A program made the translations under genes and the position numbers. The notes beneath the pieces are model-generated. The model ran no database searches, was not told the DNA's origin, and worked only from the letters and a program-made list of their open reading frames with translations. Source: Escherichia phage ETEC-TG. From it: DNA of 64,000 nucleotides. Location: the sequence record OR786310.1, one strand, 5' to 3'. Of this stretch, positions 4,564-49,763 are shown in pieces. Numbering within the stretch: the stretch's first letter is position 1; each line of letters begins with the position of its first letter.

Positions 4564-4634
4564 GCGTTCTTGGTGTAGCGGTAGCATTCCGTCCTTCCAA
4601 GTCGGCGGCACGAGTTCGATCCTCGTAGAACGCT
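4564..4634 (+). tRNA. tRNA-Gly (anticodon TCC)
   Basis: Acceptor GCGTTCT/AGAACGC, anticodon loop CT-TCC-AA, T-arm ACGAG-TTCGATC-CTCGT, CCA follows. Confidence 0.65.
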
Positions 4635-4735
4635 CCAAATTATTTAATAAAGGGTTGCCAGAAAACTTTCTCTTTTACTCATGGTTTTCTCCTTCTCTCA
4701 CACCTCTTCTGGTTGCCCTTCATTAAATGATTTAT

Positions 4736-4808
4736 TGGTTTGTAGTGTAGTCCGGTAGCACACGACACTTTGACTGTCGTAGGTTTGGTTCAAATCCAGA
4801 CAGACCAG
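4736..4808 (+). tRNA. tRNA-Gln (anticodon TTG)
   Basis: Acceptor TGGTTTG/CAGACCA, anticodon stem CGACA/TGTCG with loop CT-TTG-AC, T-loop TTCAAAT, CCA follows. Confidence 0.65.
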
Positions 4809-4884
4809 CCATATAACAAAGGTGAGTCACTACCTCAAGTGTGAAGTTAAAAACGAGGAGCCGCCGAACACTTTCTTTTGCGGT

Positions 4885-4958
4885 GTACCTTTAGAATGTT
4901 ATGACGGAATTTAGCTCAGTTTGGTAGAGTGTACGCTTTGGGAGCGTATTGTCGCAGG
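4885..4958 (+). tRNA. tRNA-Pro (anticodon TGG)
   Basis: Acceptor CGGAATT/AATTCCG, anticodon stem TACGC/GCGTA with loop TT-TGG-GA, T-arm GCAGG-TTCGAAT-CCTGC, CCA follows. Confidence 0.7.
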
Positions 4959-4967
4959 TTCGAATCC

Positions 4968-5038
4968 TGCAATTCCGACCAATTAAATGTTTCGTAGTTC
5001 AATGGTAGAACCCACGACTGATAATCGTGAGATACAAG
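4968..5038 (+). tRNA. tRNA-Ile (anticodon GAT)
   Basis: Acceptor TGTTTCG/CGAAACA, anticodon stem CACGA/TCGTG with loop CT-GAT-AA, T-loop TTCGATT, CCA follows. Confidence 0.7.
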
Positions 5039-5119
5039 TTCGATTCTTGTCGAAACAACCAGTTTCCCGTTAGACTTACAGGATAAGAGTTCCACAATTT
5101 ATTGTGACGCTGGTTCGAA

Positions 5120-5195
5120 TCCAGCACGGGATACATAATAGCGGGATAGAGGAGTCTGGTCGTCCTCGCCAGTTTCATATGCTGGAGATCATTGG
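5120..5195 (+). tRNA. tRNA-Met or Ile2 (anticodon CAT), mismatched 1:72 pair
   Basis: Anticodon stem CCAGT/GCTGG with loop TT-CAT-AT, T-arm ATTGG-TTCAAAT-CCAAT, acceptor 3' TCCCGCC, CCA follows; position 1 (A) does not pair with 72 (C). Confidence 0.6.
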
Positions 5196-5333
5196 TTCAA
5201 ATCCAATTCCCGCCTCCAAATATCGCTTGCCAGCGGTATCTTTGAAGACCTTGCCTGGTTCCTTCTAAGATGGAGGGGTGCGACTCCTTAACGCACAATT
5301 ATAATAAAGCATTTCAAATTAACAGTATTTATT

Positions 5334-41872: not shown

Positions 41873-44545
41873 ATGTTTCCAATTCCAATATTTACTATTA
41901 TGACCAGCACTGGTGTCGTTCCTCTGCCAGCGGGTATTGTTAAAAAAGTAATCACTTTAGATTACCCAGATAATGCTGGTAATTCTAACAGCAGTTTAGC
42001 AATTTTGCTTAATGATGGTAGATTGTTTACTCAAGGCGCAAACCTTTTTGGTGAGATTGCAGATGGAACTCGTAGTGCACGATTCAATAATTTCCACTTA
42101 GCTTCTACTGTAGTAGCGGATGTGTTTACCGCAGATCGTTGTTTTGTTATTAAAACTAACAGCGGGGGATGGCAATATTCAGGATTGACAGCAGGGTTGG
42201 TAGGATCTATAGCAGCAGGTGGTACGGATGCATGTGTAACTACTTGGACCAGCTTTCCATCTGTAATAACAGGGACTATCTCTTTAGCCAATCTTAAAGA
42301 GGTTAAAGGAGGGTATAACAATACTCTTTGGTTAATGAATAGCGGTGTTCTTTATGGATCGGGTCAAAACACAGTAGGCAGTTTAGGTGCAAGCACTACT
42401 AACGAAGTTTCTACTCCCCGTCAGATAACAAGTTCAGCAGTTGCTTTTGATGCAGGTTATAACCAATGCTCTTATGTCAACAATGCGGGAACCTTGCGTG
42501 TTTGTGGAGCTAGTAAAGGTTTAGCAGGTAATAATAACACAACAACCGCTTTTGTCAATGCCACGATATCCACTACTGAAACAGTGTATGTCAAAGATTA
42601 CATCAATACAGTTTCCCAGACAATAGTTGTAGGAGATACCTCCGGTGGCGCGGGTACAGTAAACTACTTATATGTTAGATCTAATACAGAAACAACCTAC
42701 ACTAAACTGGACACCTTTGCAGCAGGTTTCTCAACATGGAAATTTCCACCAAGCCGCCACTCTTTTTTCGTTGGGATCAATAATTCCTTGTGGGCTATTG
42801 GTAAGAACTACACTGCAAACTTAGGTTTGGGATATGATTCTGCGAGCGGAGATCCACTCCAAGTGGGAAAACCAGTTAAACCTGAAGGAGTGGGTTCCTG
42901 GGATATAAACAAGCTCACAAGCGTTCATACGTTGAATATGGATATTACTAACCAATTAGGTTATCAAGGAACCTTTTTCGTTTATAACGGGGATATGTAT
43001 TATTCCGGTATTTGGAAAGATGGGAAAGCCTCGTATCTGTTCAATAGTGGTCTAAACTATAATAAATTCACACCAATAGCAAGCTCCGTGATTACGGGGG
43101 ATGTTCTGGCAACTGGCTTAACTACAGATTCTTTAGGAATTTGTATTGTAGGTGGAACTAAACAGTTGACACATTCTGTTAGCCCGGAAGGAGGTAAACT
43201 TTTCAATATTAAATACACTTCTTCTGTCCCTGCAAACATGACAATATCATCTACTGGTTTAATGACTTTCCATGCAGAAGGTGGTTTTGATGCAGGTATG
43301 ACAGCCTTAAACGCTGAAGGAACAACTTTATCAGATACCTCTGGAGGATATGCTTCAACATTGAGTGTTTACACCCCTAGCTTATCTGCGATGGATGTAG
43401 GAACAACACAAACAATGGTAGCAGAAATAACGCCAACAGGAGCAGCAAGCTTACCTGGTATGGTTGTTGAGTATACAACTACAGATCCTAATGTTGCTAC
43501 AGTAGATCCTACAACTGGTGTAATAACTGGTGTTGGTGATGGTGGTTGTAGAATTGGTTGCACAGCTACATATCAAGGTGTTGTTACCGCTTCTGATAGT
43601 TCTTATTTAACGGTGAACGCTGTTGCGGGAAAGGAGTTAGCTCCATCTCCGAGTAGTAGTTTAACGGTTCTAAACGGATATTTCAACCACTCGGCAGATG
43701 GGGCAATTACGTTCCCAATTTTATCGGGTACTGTCACACCAGCTAACTTTGTAGTTAAGGTGGATGACGTTGTAATACCTTCAAATAAAGTAATATTTAG
43801 AAATAAAGCTTTCTCTACAGTGGATAGTTATCCAGCAGGAGAATATAGACTGGCTATTGAATTTGCAAGTGCTTCAGTAGTGAATAGTGTTGATGTGTCT
43901 ATGGAAGCAAATCCAGATCTTTTAGAATTATGGGGCGGCAACAGAATTGGTTATTCTACAAGCCCAGCCTCACAATTCTTAAAAGGTTGTGCTAACTTAA
44001 GACGAATAACTTCTGATTGTTTTAGTAACACATCTTACACCGGAACATCTATAAGTGGTATCTTCTCTGGCTGTACAAGTTTGACAGCTATCCCTGAAGG
44101 ATTATTCAGTGATGCTTTATTTCCTTCAATGACAACAATGTCAAGCACGTTTGAAGGTTGTACATCTTTAACATCTATTCCTTCAGATTTATTTAAAAAT
44201 CTATCAAAAGTTACAAGATATTCTTACACCTTTAAAGATTGCACCTCTCTTGCAGAAGTTCCAGCAGGAATGTTTGATAATATTCCAACGAAAGTGACCT
44301 CTTTAACAGCTACATTCCAAGGTTGTTTAGCACTTACAGATTTTAATAAAATCTTTAATGACAACCCAGGGTTAACTGTTTGTGGTAAACGTGGAGCATT
44401 ATCTTCTTTCTTTAGTGGATGCACAAATCTTACAGGAACAGGAACAACATTAACAAATACATTAGGCGGAGTAGCTAATAGTTACCTATTCAGGTATTGC
44501 ACAAAACTTTCTGATTATAACAATATTCCTTCGGGTTATAAATAA
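41873..44545 (+). CDS. tail fibre/adhesin-like protein with C-terminal BspA-type leucine-rich repeats
   Basis: Seven approx 24-aa repeats F-x-G-C-T-S-L-T-x-I-P in the last approx 190 aa. Confidence 0.5.
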   Translation: MFPIPIFTIMTSTGVVPLPAGIVKKVITLDYPDNAGNSNSSLAILLNDGRLFTQGANLFGEIADGTRSARFNNFHLASTVVADVFTADRCFVIKTNSGGWQYSGLTAGLVGSIAAGGTDACVTTWTSFPSVITGTISLANLKEVKGGYNNTLWLMNSGVLYGSGQNTVGSLGASTTNEVSTPRQITSSAVAFDAGYNQCSYVNNAGTLRVCGASKGLAGNNNTTTAFVNATISTTETVYVKDYINTVSQTIVVGDTSGGAGTVNYLYVRSNTETTYTKLDTFAAGFSTWKFPPSRHSFFVGINNSLWAIGKNYTANLGLGYDSASGDPLQVGKPVKPEGVGSWDINKLTSVHTLNMDITNQLGYQGTFFVYNGDMYYSGIWKDGKASYLFNSGLNYNKFTPIASSVITGDVLATGLTTDSLGICIVGGTKQLTHSVSPEGGKLFNIKYTSSVPANMTISSTGLMTFHAEGGFDAGMTALNAEGTTLSDTSGGYASTLSVYTPSLSAMDVGTTQTMVAEITPTGAASLPGMVVEYTTTDPNVATVDPTTGVITGVGDGGCRIGCTATYQGVVTASDSSYLTVNAVAGKELAPSPSSSLTVLNGYFNHSADGAITFPILSGTVTPANFVVKVDDVVIPSNKVIFRNKAFSTVDSYPAGEYRLAIEFASASVVNSVDVSMEANPDLLELWGGNRIGYSTSPASQFLKGCANLRRITSDCFSNTSYTGTSISGIFSGCTSLTAIPEGLFSDALFPSMTTMSSTFEGCTSLTSIPSDLFKNLSKVTRYSYTFKDCTSLAEVPAGMFDNIPTKVTSLTATFQGCLALTDFNKIFNDNPGLTVCGKRGALSSFFSGCTNLTGTGTTLTNTLGGVANSYLFRYCTKLSDYNNIPSGYK

Positions 44546-44578
44546 GAAAAGGAGCCATTTGGCTCCTTTCTTTTATAA
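44546..44578. terminator. bidirectional terminator between convergent late and replication operons
   Basis: AAAAGGAGCC-attt-GGCTCCTTTCTTTT with A-run upstream and T-run downstream. Confidence 0.65.
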
Positions 44579-44601: not shown

Positions 44602-45489
44602 TCAGAATGGAATATCATCATCGAAGTCCATTGGAGGTTCTTCTTGATTACTTGGAGTTGGTTCTGGTTGTGGTTCAGGTTTTTTAACTTCTTTCTTCTC
44701 TTCTTTCTTAGGTTGTTCTGCGGAACCACGAATGGCAGCAGCAACTTTATCAGACAAAGCTAGAACTTTACGAGCAGAGTCAATCAAATCTTCTACAGAT
44801 ACAGTCTTAATGGTATGGTCTTTACAAGCATTGAGGATAGCGTGACCAACAGATGCCCCAAGATCATAATCATTAATGTCAACGCCACGAGATTCAGCAA
44901 TTTCCGATTTCAGCGTGACAGTTGCAGATTGAACAACCCCAGCGATATCGAAAGCATCACCTTTAACACCATTACGAATCAGTTCCAGTGCACCATTTAC
45001 TGCGTGACCAGTTTCCAGACCTACAGTATCACGTTTTTTATAGGACTGCTTAGGAGCAGCATCGTTGGAACCTTTATTGCCAGAAGATTTGTTAGACTTC
45101 TGAACACCATCGGTAGACAATACTGTAATACGAGATTTTTTAGTATTGTAGTAAGTTTTACCGCCTTTATTATCAACGCGATCAATATCAATACTTACTT
45201 CTACACCTTTTTCAATAGTGATCCAATTATCACCTTCTTTGACTTGCAGGTTTTCATAACCTTCTTTCAGTTCAATGTCACCAAGAGAAATCCAAACACC
45301 TTTCTCATCTGGTTTAGCACCTTTCTCTTTCAGAACAAGAGAAGCTCGGTGAGTTGAAACAATCGTTTTTCCTTCCCAATGAAAAGTTTTAGGTTCAGCG
45401 AATTTATCCAGTTTAACGTAGTCTACGATACCAGTTGCATAAGTTACGGTTTTGCCTTTACGATCAGTTTCAGTATTAATTACGGACAT
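44602..45489 (-). CDS. SSB-like protein with host-type C-terminal tip
   Basis: C-terminus ...PPMDFDDDIPF matches the E. coli SSB tail; heads the replication block; N-terminal body not recognisably bacterial SSB. Confidence 0.55.
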   Translation of the reverse strand: MSVINTETDRKGKTVTYATGIVDYVKLDKFAEPKTFHWEGKTIVSTHRASLVLKEKGAKPDEKGVWISLGDIELKEGYENLQVKEGDNWITIEKGVEVSIDIDRVDNKGGKTYYNTKKSRITVLSTDGVQKSNKSSGNKGSNDAAPKQSYKKRDTVGLETGHAVNGALELIRNGVKGDAFDIAGVVQSATVTLKSEIAESRGVDINDYDLGASVGHAILNACKDHTIKTVSVEDLIDSARKVLALSDKVAAAIRGSAEQPKKEEKKEVKKPEPQPEPTPSNQEEPPMDFDDDIPF

Positions 45490-45505: not shown

Positions 45506-45898
45506 TTACATTAATTTTGCACAGAAAGAGCGGAGTCTTTCCATATCATCTTGCTCTAACAGGTATTTACCTTTACCTATTCCAACTCCAATTTCACCAT
45601 TAGGGAAATGAACTATTTGCACTGGAAAACCTCCGAGTTTAATTGTGGCAGCTTTGCCTTCTTCGTCTATAACGTTTCGGATTGTATCTTGCAGTGAAAT
45701 GAATTCTTTGTTTGTAACAGTGGTTTCAATTATTTCAGATGTTTCAACACGAGCAGTTAGCTTCTTGTTTCCACCTTGAATAACCAAAATTTGAAAATAA
45801 AAAGAGTTGTCAAGACCTACAACATTTTTCTCAACTAGTGTCAAACTGGTATAGTTTCCATAAACAGTTTCAACAGCTATCTTAGAACGTTCAGTCAT
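45506..45898 (-). CDS. hypothetical protein
   Basis: Minus-strand promoter candidate upstream (TTGACA - 18 nt - TAGGAT at approx 45900-45940). Confidence 0.4.
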   Translation of the reverse strand: MTERSKIAVETVYGNYTSLTLVEKNVVGLDNSFYFQILVIQGGNKKLTARVETSEIIETTVTNKEFISLQDTIRNVIDEEGKAATIKLGGFPVQIVHFPNGEIGVGIGKGKYLLEQDDMERLRSFCAKLM

Positions 45899-45943: not shown

Positions 45944-46537
45944 TTACCAAGGAATATCCTCTTCTTCCAATCTGGTATCTACTTGAGGTGGACGTGGAAC
46001 CTTAACCTCTTTCACAAAACGAAGATATGGGAAACGTGTAGCAATTTTAATAACGTGTTTGGCATCTTCTCTAACGTCTTTGTGCAAGAAGCAGATCCCT
46101 GTTTCCAAGGTTGTTTCAAAATCTTTAGAATAATAACAATCCTTCCCATCAAATGCAGCCTGGCAGATGGACAGATCGAACTCATTTAGAAAGGTTGTCA
46201 TTACGCTTGGTTCCATAATCATAAGGTTGCAAAGCTGACCATCACGTTCAAACTCAAAAACGTGTTTAAGACCAGTAACACCTTCATAATTGTCAGAAGC
46301 CTCTTTGTTTCCTAGTTTACGAATATTGGTTCCCATTAAAGCAGATGCAATTAATCCTTGTATTTGTTCTTCAGTCCGATGTGCAGGAAGGGATGTATAG
46401 AAATCAAGATCACGTCCAGCAATATCAAGAATACGCCAATCACGAACAGCACCGCCAGCCAAGACAGAATTAGGATCAGCGATCTTTAATACGGTAAGAA
46501 TTTCTTTGGCAATATTGATTTGTTTTGATTTAGTCAT
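45944..46537 (-). CDS. minimal pol-beta-type nucleotidyltransferase (CCA-adding-enzyme-like head motif)
   Basis: N-terminal LAGGAVRDWRILDIAGRDLDF resembles GGAVRD...DxD of class II tRNA nucleotidyltransferases; 197 aa is far shorter than canonical enzymes. Confidence 0.4.
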   Translation of the reverse strand: MTKSKQINIAKEILTVLKIADPNSVLAGGAVRDWRILDIAGRDLDFYTSLPAHRTEEQIQGLIASALMGTNIRKLGNKEASDNYEGVTGLKHVFEFERDGQLCNLMIMEPSVMTTFLNEFDLSICQAAFDGKDCYYSKDFETTLETGICFLHKDVREDAKHVIKIATRFPYLRFVKEVKVPRPPQVDTRLEEEDIPW

Positions 46538-47165: not shown

Positions 47166-49763
47166 CTAGTGACAGGACGCCCAGGAATTACCCACATCGT
47201 ATCCGGCAGTAAGCTGAACGTTAAGATTGTAAAATTCTCCAGCCTTAGTAACAGCTAAAGCAGCAAGTTCACCTGCCCGACTATAGGCTGTAAACCATCC
47301 ACCTTTGGGAGATTCATGAATGTTAGCCCAAATTTGCCCTGTCTCTTTTTCCTTATTATGCTTCCATTCTTCGACTTTAGCAAGGCATTCTTTATCAATT
47401 TTCTTTTGTTCTTCAGGATCGTCTACTTTCTTCCAACCTAATGATTCGGGTGAAAACCATTTGAATTCTACAAGGTTACGAGAAACTTCAAGCTGGGCTT
47501 CATCGTGGTATGCAATCATTTGTTGCACGAAGTCTTTATTCTTCCAGTCATCTTTAAAGAAGTCAACACTTAGCCCTTCTTCTTCGATCATGTCGTCATA
47601 AATAACCATTGCACGTTTAGCACAAATAACCCCACCACTTTGGAACAGAGAGTTAAGAATCGCGTGAGCAGAACGAGTAGGAACCTTACGACCGTCAATA
47701 CCCAAAACATATTGTTTACCAGTCTTAACCCAGAAATCGTTTAAACGTTCTTTAAGACGCGCCAATGGAAATGCAGCTTCCCAGAAAGCATCGAACACCA
47801 ATTGACCTGTAAACTTGTCGCTACCAATTGTTTTAGCAACCTTGTCGGCTTGTGCACCATAAGTAATACCATACTTAACAGATTTAGCAGGACTACGTTC
47901 AAATTTACGTCCAATAGTTTCAGTGATACGTTTTGCCATCATTGTGTGAACATCGTTAGGTTTCTCTAACAACAGAGCGTTACAATATTCGTGTGGCTCC
48001 GGCTCGTACCGCCAACAGTAGTGTGATTCAATTTTTGCTTCCAAAGAGTCGAAGTCGTAGCCAATCTGGAAGTACTTAGGAACCTCTACACCAAACAAGT
48101 TACGCATCTCCCATCCAAACAAAGATGTGACACGAGGAATATTAGCTACAGACCTATGCTTCATACGAGAGGTTGCAGCATCACATGTAGCTGCTGGGGT
48201 AGGAATACGACCATCCGCCCTTACTGCGGCTAAGAAACCTTTATCATATTCTTGATCTTCCTCATCTTCTTCCCAATCAGCACCACCGCCTAAAATAGAA
48301 TTCCTACGATGCTTATACGTTAAGTATTCTACAATCTGTGTAGCATAAGGGAATTTCTCACCTAAAGCTTGCAGGTTAGGACAGATTTCTTTTTCCTGAC
48401 CTTTGGTAAAACATGGGTTAGTCAATACTTTAAGACCGCGACCCTTACCTTTTGCTATACGCTCTTGAATCTTCCTCTCCAAGGTTTCCGGTGTGCACTC
48501 CAGATGATCACAACGATCCTGACAAAAATTAGAAGACAGAGTTTGCTCAACGTAAGCTCGAATACCTTTCTGAAGTTCTTCCTCGCTCTTTTTAATCTTG
48601 GTGCCAGATTTAAGAGTCAAGTCTTTATCTTTATATTCAGACGGTACCCAACCTAATCCTACAAGCCAGTTTTTAATATGGGTAGTATCGTTCAATGTTG
48701 CAGGGATATTAGGATCACACAAAGGCTCATCTGCTGCAACTGGTAGTTTCCACTCTTTCCCCAACATAACTAACCACCAATCGCCATTCCTCTCTTCCAA
48801 ATGACCATCATGTTTCTTAGCAAAATTGATCATATGGTTAGTTGGCTCTAAGTTCTTTTTAATTTGCAACTTAGGTGGAATAAAAGCCTTAAGATAACCT
48901 TTTGTTGCTGGTTTAGGTGGCAAAATAGGCTCAACGAGTAAACGAAGACGCTCCATTTCTGCATCCAAAAAAGCAAGGTTCTCTTCTGCTTGCTTCATGT
49001 TAAAAGCAAACCCACGGTGTTCCTGGCGTGTAATAATGTCTGCTACACGTTGTTCAAGTTCAAATGGACCTTCCCATTTATCATAATCACCCCATTCTTC
49101 CATAAGGTAATTATATACGCTCGTATTGGCTTTGTTGTCATAGATACAGTAATAAAGCATATCAGCAGCAAAAGTCTTAAATCGATCTTCTTCTGGAACC
49201 TCTTTACGAAAATCTATTTTTACATCACCCCCTGCCTTTCGAGAAAGTGCTGCCAAGCTATGTCCTGATTTGCCCTCAATCTTTCGATCTGGGTTTAACA
49301 CTTTACTCAAAATCAAGGAGTCAATAAGTTTTACCTTATTTTTACCCCACGTATTATATTTAACACTGTAATCTAAACCATAAAACAGTTTTGTAGCCAA
49401 CCAGTCATAGTTGATACCGTTGTGAGCCACAGCCATTTCAACCAGATATTCAGGCTTATCTTTAAAATAACCTTCATGATTAATAAAGTCTGGGAAATCT
49501 TTTAGTTGAAAATGTGTGTAATCTTGCGCCACATACTCTTTAAGAACATATGTGTATTTACCATCTGACTCTTCATAAGGACGCCCATCAAAGATGTATT
49601 TAGGGCCATCGTGGAAAGCTACTATTTCTCCTGTTTCATGGTTCTCTAAGACAATACAGTGCATTTGAAATGTGTCTTTGAGACGATAAGGACTAGCTAA
49701 ATAATCGATAGTGTCATTATTCAACAATCCGTTTGCTTCAATATCCCATGTAAACTTACTCAC
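47166..49763 (-). CDS. DNA polymerase, family A, with 3'-5' exonuclease domain
   Basis: Exo I motif FTWDIEANGL; motif A DFDSLEAKIE; motif B RSPAKSVKYGITYG; motif C IAYHDEAQ. Confidence 0.85.
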   Translation of the reverse strand: MSKFTWDIEANGLLNNDTIDYLASPYRLKDTFQMHCIVLENHETGEIVAFHDGPKYIFDGRPYEESDGKYTYVLKEYVAQDYTHFQLKDFPDFINHEGYFKDKPEYLVEMAVAHNGINYDWLATKLFYGLDYSVKYNTWGKNKVKLIDSLILSKVLNPDRKIEGKSGHSLAALSRKAGGDVKIDFRKEVPEEDRFKTFAADMLYYCIYDNKANTSVYNYLMEEWGDYDKWEGPFELEQRVADIITRQEHRGFAFNMKQAEENLAFLDAEMERLRLLVEPILPPKPATKGYLKAFIPPKLQIKKNLEPTNHMINFAKKHDGHLEERNGDWWLVMLGKEWKLPVAADEPLCDPNIPATLNDTTHIKNWLVGLGWVPSEYKDKDLTLKSGTKIKKSEEELQKGIRAYVEQTLSSNFCQDRCDHLECTPETLERKIQERIAKGKGRGLKVLTNPCFTKGQEKEICPNLQALGEKFPYATQIVEYLTYKHRRNSILGGGADWEEDEEDQEYDKGFLAAVRADGRIPTPAATCDAATSRMKHRSVANIPRVTSLFGWEMRNLFGVEVPKYFQIGYDFDSLEAKIESHYCWRYEPEPHEYCNALLLEKPNDVHTMMAKRITETIGRKFERSPAKSVKYGITYGAQADKVAKTIGSDKFTGQLVFDAFWEAAFPLARLKERLNDFWVKTGKQYVLGIDGRKVPTRSAHAILNSLFQSGGVICAKRAMVIYDDMIEEEGLSVDFFKDDWKNKDFVQQMIAYHDEAQLEVSRNLVEFKWFSPESLGWKKVDDPEEQKKIDKECLAKVEEWKHNKEKETGQIWANIHESPKGGWFTAYSRAGELAALAVTKAGEFYNLNVQLTAGYDVGNSWASCH

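Follow-up and report, generated by a model that had tools for sequence, protein, structure and literature searches.

A putative replicative single-stranded DNA-binding protein with a host-identical C-terminal tip in a phAPEC8-like phage of Escherichia coli

Several bacterial defense systems sense SSBs (single-stranded DNA-binding proteins) of phages, namely Retron-Eco8, DARNA, Hna, AbpAB and now DRT10. The rV5-, phi92- and phAPEC8-like myoviruses are common candidates for therapy against E. coli, and their putative SSB is entered as 'hypothetical protein' in most of the genome records seen in this work. The closest described system is found in the Vequintavirus Bas52 (RudolfGeigy), from which mutants escaping the DRT10/UG17 reverse-transcriptase defense have been isolated (bioRxiv April 2026, 10.64898/2026.04.29.721553). 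Both escape mutations, D252V and Y351C, fell in Bas52_0087, a protein required for DRT10 activation, which was described as SSB-like on the basis of Phold and AlphaFold2, having two OB folds as well as the FDDDIPF sequence within a disordered C-terminus; the authors assigned the mutations to a putative oligomerization interface. In addition, overexpression of host SbcB (ExoI) weakened the defense, expression of Bas52_0087 alone did not trigger DRT10, and Stephanstirmvirinae were also restricted, with the sensed protein mapped in Bas52 only (10.64898/2026.04.29.721553). A search of the literature on SSBs of phAPEC8, rV5 and the Stephanstirmvirinae returned this preprint as the only relevant report and found no biochemical work on members of the family.

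Here we analyzed a homolog of Bas52_0087 encoded in the window, the whole 64-kb stretch of DNA under study, the source of which is a Phapecoctavirus (phAPEC8-like, Stephanstirmvirinae). The ORF list and translation place a gene of 295 aa at 44602..45489 on the minus strand, with an ATG start and a TGA stop (44602-44604) directly after ...SNQEEPPMDFDDDIPF, in agreement with the coordinates 44602-45489 given by an earlier sequence-only reading. The protein is the short, single-OB form of a recently recognized phage SSB-like family. Its sequence matches gp246 ('hypothetical protein') of phage Schickermooser with 100% identity, as it does the protein of many other isolates, and 112 public contigs carry exactly this sequence, in a few cases under the name 'single-stranded DNA-binding protein'; an SSB name has already been given to it in several GenBank, RefSeq and UniRef records. 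We propose that the gene probably encodes the replicative SSB of this phAPEC8-like phage, a protein of a phage-only family, and that partners from the host, the phage or both dock at its tip.

In MZ501102, bas52_0087 corresponds to QXV84166.1, in which D252 and Y351 are present and the C-terminus reads SFDDDIPF. BLASTP aligned the window protein with Bas52_0087 over the OB domain (35% identity, E 8e-13) and over the helical domain and tail (33%, E 9e-16). Like the window protein, Bas52_0087 is encoded after a T7-like polymerase, ends in ...FDDDIPF and belongs to the same PHROG-level family, whereas it is longer (408 aa), carries a second small beta (OB-like) domain at the position where the window protein has a 26-aa basic linker, and has an upstream neighbor gene unrelated to the 130-aa gene found in the window.

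The tip, EPPMDFDDDIPF (residues 284-295; 44605..44640, minus strand), consists of the same 12 last residues as the SSB of E. coli K-12 read from NC_000913.3. The tail had been called nearly identical to that of E. coli SSB, and over these residues the identity is in fact complete (12/12); chance does not explain so long a match at the very end of the protein. When the protein was compared with all PDB sequences by HMMER, residues 269-295 alone aligned, to EcSSB (1eqq/7f2n). Compared with E. coli ssb, 30/36 nucleotides of the tip sequence are identical, and the changes, which affect six of the 12 codons, are without exception synonymous. This indicates that selection acts on the encoded peptide; on the same grounds, half of the codons having diverged synonymously, it was rejected that the tail DNA had been captured recently from host ssb. 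Across the window and a sister genome (first 50 kb), the SSB-like ORF was the only one ending in DD.IPF, and in some relatives the copy of EcSSB reaches 14-15 residues (PSNEPPMDFDDDIPF in P0033, P0044 and P0059). An acidic ...DDDIPF tip at the extreme C-terminus, following a disordered linker, is a feature of canonical SSBs that is present in the window protein.

Relatives of the window protein differ in what follows this tip. The window protein ends at a free ...IPF with the stop codon (44602-44604) adjoining, without any extension, whereas all phi92-like phages, which form a sister genus (phi92 gp156, 315 aa), continue for 14-17 residues beyond ...IPF, for example with APIGLQYGRNFLHCF. In other clades such extensions are sporadic. 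The extensions have the pattern [AS]P[ILV]GLQY..., and they were located at L002 6901-6948 (ESCO9), L014 2386-2899 and L018 3468-3896. In L014 (a rare Phapecoctavirus variant) and L018 (another clade), and in the four isolates Mt1B1_P17, ZCKP1, nieznany and PsgM04F, the extension is accompanied by an HNH endonuclease gene (142-164 aa), which overlaps the extension and is located between ...IPF and the terminator; because of this association, the tip-encoding 3' end looks like the target of a homing-endonuclease cassette. Over 15 extension codons, ESCO9 and L014 differ by seven synonymous and no non-synonymous changes, so that the extension peptide is apparently under selection in the SSB frame. 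AlphaFold2 predicted the extension of a phi92-type variant to be disordered. SbcB (ExoI) is a binder of the SSB tip, and in the structures of ExoI, RecQ, chi and PriA with SSB-Ct the carboxylate of the terminal Phe is a key contact. As this carboxylate is not free in viable extended phages, the notion that canonical tip docking is essential throughout the family is weakened. A more far-reaching and rather unlikely reading is that of a hijacking hub, in which an exchangeable, host-matched SSB-Ct cassette, carried by a DNA-binding body that does not resemble bacterial SSB in sequence, would steer the host SSB interactome (e.g., ExoI) onto phage ssDNA, DRT10-type defenses would sense this redirection, and cassettes would be exchanged preferentially at the tip-encoding 3' end, as marked by insertions of HNH homing endonucleases through which a selected 15-residue extension masking the tip is added.

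The body of the protein, the 283 residues before the tip, had been described as unlike bacterial SSB, and in terms of sequence this was borne out. A Pfam scan (E<=1) returned noise alone, with no SSB family (PF00436 or other), and phmmer and hmmsearch against PDB sequences left the body unmatched, with hits limited to tail residues 269-295. No similarity of the body to the PF00436, gp32 or gp2.5 families was detected by sequence or profile, and no gp2.5 chain appeared among the PDB sequence and fold matches. Two kinds of spurious match were set aside: a Pfam Ribosomal_60s match is noise caused by the K/E/P tail, and PDB matches to Dictyostelium myosin-2 were confined to the last 14-22 residues. 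The protein matched PHROG 4477 ('unknown function') with E=2.7e-97, and annotated SSB phrogs matched its last ~45 residues and nothing else. The body is not featureless, however, in that an OB fold and a conserved helical domain are predicted in it.

Structure prediction for an OB fold had been suggested by the sequence-only reading, and the AlphaFold2 model, a monomer built on an alignment of 54 family sequences (A1), contains such a fold at residues 1-127. The model is confident (mean pLDDT 82) and comprises an all-beta domain, a linker, a four-helix domain and a disordered tail with the tip. The predicted OB-fold domain, a putative ssDNA-binding module, is encoded at 45109..45489 (minus strand, as are all segments of the gene). 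A Foldseek search against the PDB gave nothing at E<=0.001, and its weak top matches were OB domains, from which we take the fold to be an OB fold without a close solved relative; against BFVD, Foldseek returned uncharacterized phage proteins only. Conserved positions of this domain include the aromatic and basic residues H47, W66, W89, Y113/Y114, K34, K41, K84 and K111, which would fit an ssDNA-binding face, a circumstantial argument drawn from residue conservation.

Since its OB fold precedes a helical domain, as in RecO, the protein could alternatively be taken for a mediator of recombination or for an annealing factor and not for a general SSB. This appears very improbable: the RecO matches span ~92 residues (the OB part) with scores no better than those of dozens of other OB folds, no RecO Pfam match was obtained, and the combination of an N-terminal OB fold with a helical/zinc domain that characterizes RecO was not found. 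Moreover, RecO binds the SSB tip and does not carry one, and no other SSB is annotated against which such a mediator could act.

Residues 128-153 (45031..45108) form a disordered basic linker, with pLDDT <50 at 133-149 and 7 K/R vs 1 D/E. This is followed by the conserved four-helix domain at residues 154-256 (44722..45030), with AlphaFold2 helices at 156-172, 179-201, 208-223 and 232-255 (pLDDT >90), and by a disordered K/E/P-rich linker at residues 257-283 (44641..44721; pLDDT 43-66; 6 K/R, 7 D/E, 6 P and 0 G). The helical domain is the most conserved region of the family, and its fold matches are generic helical proteins only. It carries the motifs RDxxGxExGHAxNGA and DYDLGASVGHAxLNA, and G157, H162, A163, T190, K194, G211 and G215 are invariant or nearly so; we regard it as a putative oligomerization or partner interface. 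In the alignment with Bas52_0087, D252 corresponds to D154 of the window protein (89% conserved) and Y351 to A250 in the last helix, both escape sites thus falling in the helical domain. The window protein is a plausible trigger or target of SSB-sensing defenses in Stephanstirmvirinae, and escape mutations would be expected in the conserved helical domain.

A word-indexed search for family members found 137 homologs at E<=1e-3, the best 120 of which were listed. When 1.84 billion cluster representatives were searched exhaustively with a profile, ~310 clusters (50% identity) had E<=1e-3, among them 218 with E<=1e-10. Among the homologs inspected, all those with a named source come from phage genomes or E. 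coli assemblies and none carries a precomputed Pfam domain, and the family is phage-restricted. Short forms of ~275-320 aa include the window protein and all members from Stephanstirmvirinae, whereas long forms of ~365-425 aa, present in rV5-like and related phages, contain an extra small beta domain of ~60 aa at the junction of the OB fold and the helical domain (A1). The window protein is without this insert and has a single predicted OB fold, not two. In rV5-like genomes the SSB-like gene is likewise located downstream of the T7-like polymerase. Among the 150 best cluster representatives, 109 have tails ending in acidic-[ILV]PF, and the others mostly have an acidic stretch and ...PF, ...DF, ...AF or ...PPF; an acidic tail with a terminal aromatic residue is thus a family trait, shared by nearly all members. 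The clades with divergent tails (...PPF, ...GLDF) are without cultured relatives.

Two further observations were made during this survey. Five records labeled 'Campylobacter phage' (MG065635, MG065659, MG065690, MG065644 and MG065655) are rV5-type genomes with E. coli-type tails, their SSB-like gene showing 72% identity and the same score against the query as the E. coli rV5 phages, and the host labels are probably wrong. In addition, eight separate stretches of the metagenomic protein P0307 (519 aa) match the helical domain of the family, which suggests a tandem array of this domain outside the SSB-like context.

The genomic context of the gene points to a role in replication. It is the final gene of a leftward replication operon with the order DnaB-like helicase, methyltransferase, PolA-type polymerase, small ORFs, nucleotidyltransferase, 130-aa protein and SSB-like gene. 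The PolA-type (T7-like) DNA polymerase (47166..49763, minus strand; PHROG 17, E=2.5e-111; annotated as DNA polymerase I) is a candidate phage partner of the acidic tail. The 130-aa gene immediately upstream of the SSB-like gene (45506..45898, minus strand; PHROG 16560, unknown function) encodes a protein that shares 56% of its residues with ESCO9_00170 and 33% with the corresponding neighbor in L018, and a comparison with the rV5 neighbor gene gave no match. This gene always adjoins the SSB-like gene upstream in Stephanstirmvirinae-like genomes, not in rV5, and its product is possibly a dedicated partner of the SSB-like protein. The operon is closed by a perfect bidirectional intrinsic-terminator hairpin found by a terminator scan (44547..44570, both strands), which is common to the SSB-like gene and a convergent 890-aa tail gene (41873..44545), and the Schickermooser annotation has a terminator at the equivalent position. 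According to the annotation of the whole Schickermooser genome (151 kb), this phage encodes helicases, a polymerase, ligases, exonucleases and ribonucleotide reductases of its own, and no second SSB is annotated in this complete genome. A tblastn search with EcSSB, which covered the window and 50 kb from the start of the Schickermooser genome, matched the tail alone; the last ~37 kb were covered by annotation.

Several other features were observed in and around this operon. The 197-aa nucleotidyltransferase encoded two genes upstream of the SSB-like gene (45944..46537, minus strand) has the C-terminus ...RLEEEDIPW, which is acidic, ends in I-P-aromatic and resembles an SSB tip. As a second tip, its EEEDIPW end is probably incidental, since the ESCO9 ortholog ends in ...NNEEFKI and the motif is unconserved. 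A sigma-70-like site, TTGACA-18-TAGGAT, is located at 45936-45907, near the 130-aa gene. The phi92-like phage ESCO9 has an extra endonuclease-like ORF between the polymerase and the nucleotidyltransferase (ESCO9_00168; L002 4344-4940), judged by eye only to be an HNH/AP2-type homing endonuclease, and homing elements seem to insert into the replication operon with particular frequency. Several C-terminal repeats of the 890-aa tail protein (41873-44545, plus strand), F.GCTSLT.IP..LF, are by eye BspA-type leucine-rich-like, and a neighboring homolog shows weak Pfam marks (Big_2 and WD40-like). Elsewhere in the window, a tRNA cluster at 4564-5218 (plus strand) contains at least five genes (Gly, Gln, Pro, Ile and Met), and the cluster of the sister genome contains ten.

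An exact copy of the host tip is also what would be expected of a decoy that sequesters host SSB-interacting proteins (ExoI, RecQ, PriA and others) from host SSB in order to guard phage DNA ends or to stop host repair, with DNA binding secondary or absent. We consider a decoy improbable, as the conserved OB fold, the helical domain and the SSB-like disordered linker would be superfluous for a titrator, the gene belongs to a replication operon, in a phage that has its own replisome and offers no other SSB candidate, and viable variants in which the tip is masked are common. The sequence-only reading had left the choice between a divergent phage SSB and a decoy; the former is better supported, given the predicted OB fold, the layout of linker and tip, the position at the operon end, the lack of any other annotated SSB and the preprint on the rV5 homolog, and a pure decoy is disfavored.

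A possible, somewhat doubtful alternative concerns the partners of the tail rather than the nature of the protein. In the gp2.5 model, the tail would mainly serve the own replisome of the phage, docking the T7-like polymerase and the DnaB-like helicase and autoregulating DNA binding, and the identity with the host tip would reflect the borrowing of a cassette, with no need of host partners. In line with this, the phage encodes a PolA-type polymerase, a helicase, ligases and exonucleases, in divergent members of the family IPF is replaced by ...DF, ...AF or ...PPF, with gp2.5 likewise ending in an acidic Phe tail, the phi92-like phages tolerate a C-terminal extension of the tip, and phage SSB tails are able to recruit phage partners, as in the case of HK620 SSB and Sak4 (PMC5928155). 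However, an identity with the host over 12 residues that includes the non-essential PPM, and over up to 14-15 residues in relatives, exceeds the needs of a generic acidic tail, and the effect of ExoI dosage in the DRT10 preprint points to a host partner.

Taken together, the reading as a replicative SSB is favored by the identity of the tip, the OB and helical domains of the model, the operon position and the absence of another annotated SSB, as well as by the family-wide conservation of the tail, the homology with Bas52_0087 and the records that already bear an SSB name. It is weakened by the lack of matches of the body in PF00436, gp32 and gp2.5, by the null result of Foldseek against the PDB and by the masked tips of phi92-like phages, and the failure of Bas52_0087 alone to trigger DRT10 was also counted against it. 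In the mechanism that we propose for the replicative SSB, the N-terminal OB fold would bind ssDNA via its conserved aromatic and basic residues, and the four-helix domain may mediate self-association or cooperativity, or dock a phage partner, as its conservation and the escape mutations suggest. The disordered K/E/P linker would then present the acidic tip EPPMDFDDDIPF, the exact copy of host SSB-Ct, which, judging from its identity, may dock proteins that recognize EcSSB-Ct. Host candidates for this docking are ExoI/SbcB, chi, PriA, RecQ, RecO and others, and host partners are favored by the exactness of the copy and the SbcB result. Phage candidates are the T7-like polymerase and the helicase of the phage itself, which could be bound as by the gp2.5 tail in T7; these partners are favored by analogy with gp2.5 and with HK620 SSB/Sak4. 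If the family does act as replicative SSB, a gap in the replisome annotation of rV5-, phi92- and phAPEC8-like phages would be filled. In addition, a host-identical tip on a body without similarity to bacterial SSB is an unusual architecture and offers a natural experiment on the share of the SSB hub function that the tip provides by itself.

The body has no sequence similarity to E. coli SSB (PF00436; 1eqq, 1kaw), and the window protein has an additional helical domain of 100 aa and a K/E/P-rich linker, in contrast to the G/Q/P-rich linker of E. coli SSB; it probably oligomerizes via the helical domain, unlike E. coli SSB with its OB-OB tetramerization. The HK620-type SSBs of phages and plasmids, which have host-like tails, are bona fide PF00436 homologs, with which the window protein shares the tail only, and the C-terminal hexapeptide of HK620 SSB is needed to recruit the phage partner Sak4 (PMC5928155). 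T7 gp2.5 resembles the window protein as a phage-specific SSB or SSB-like protein with an OB fold (predicted in the present case) and an acidic, Phe-terminated tail, which in gp2.5 serves as the docking site for the polymerase and helicase of the phage, a function separable from DNA binding. Nevertheless, gp2.5 has no detected sequence relationship with the window protein, it lacks a separate four-helix domain, and its tail does not copy that of the host SSB.
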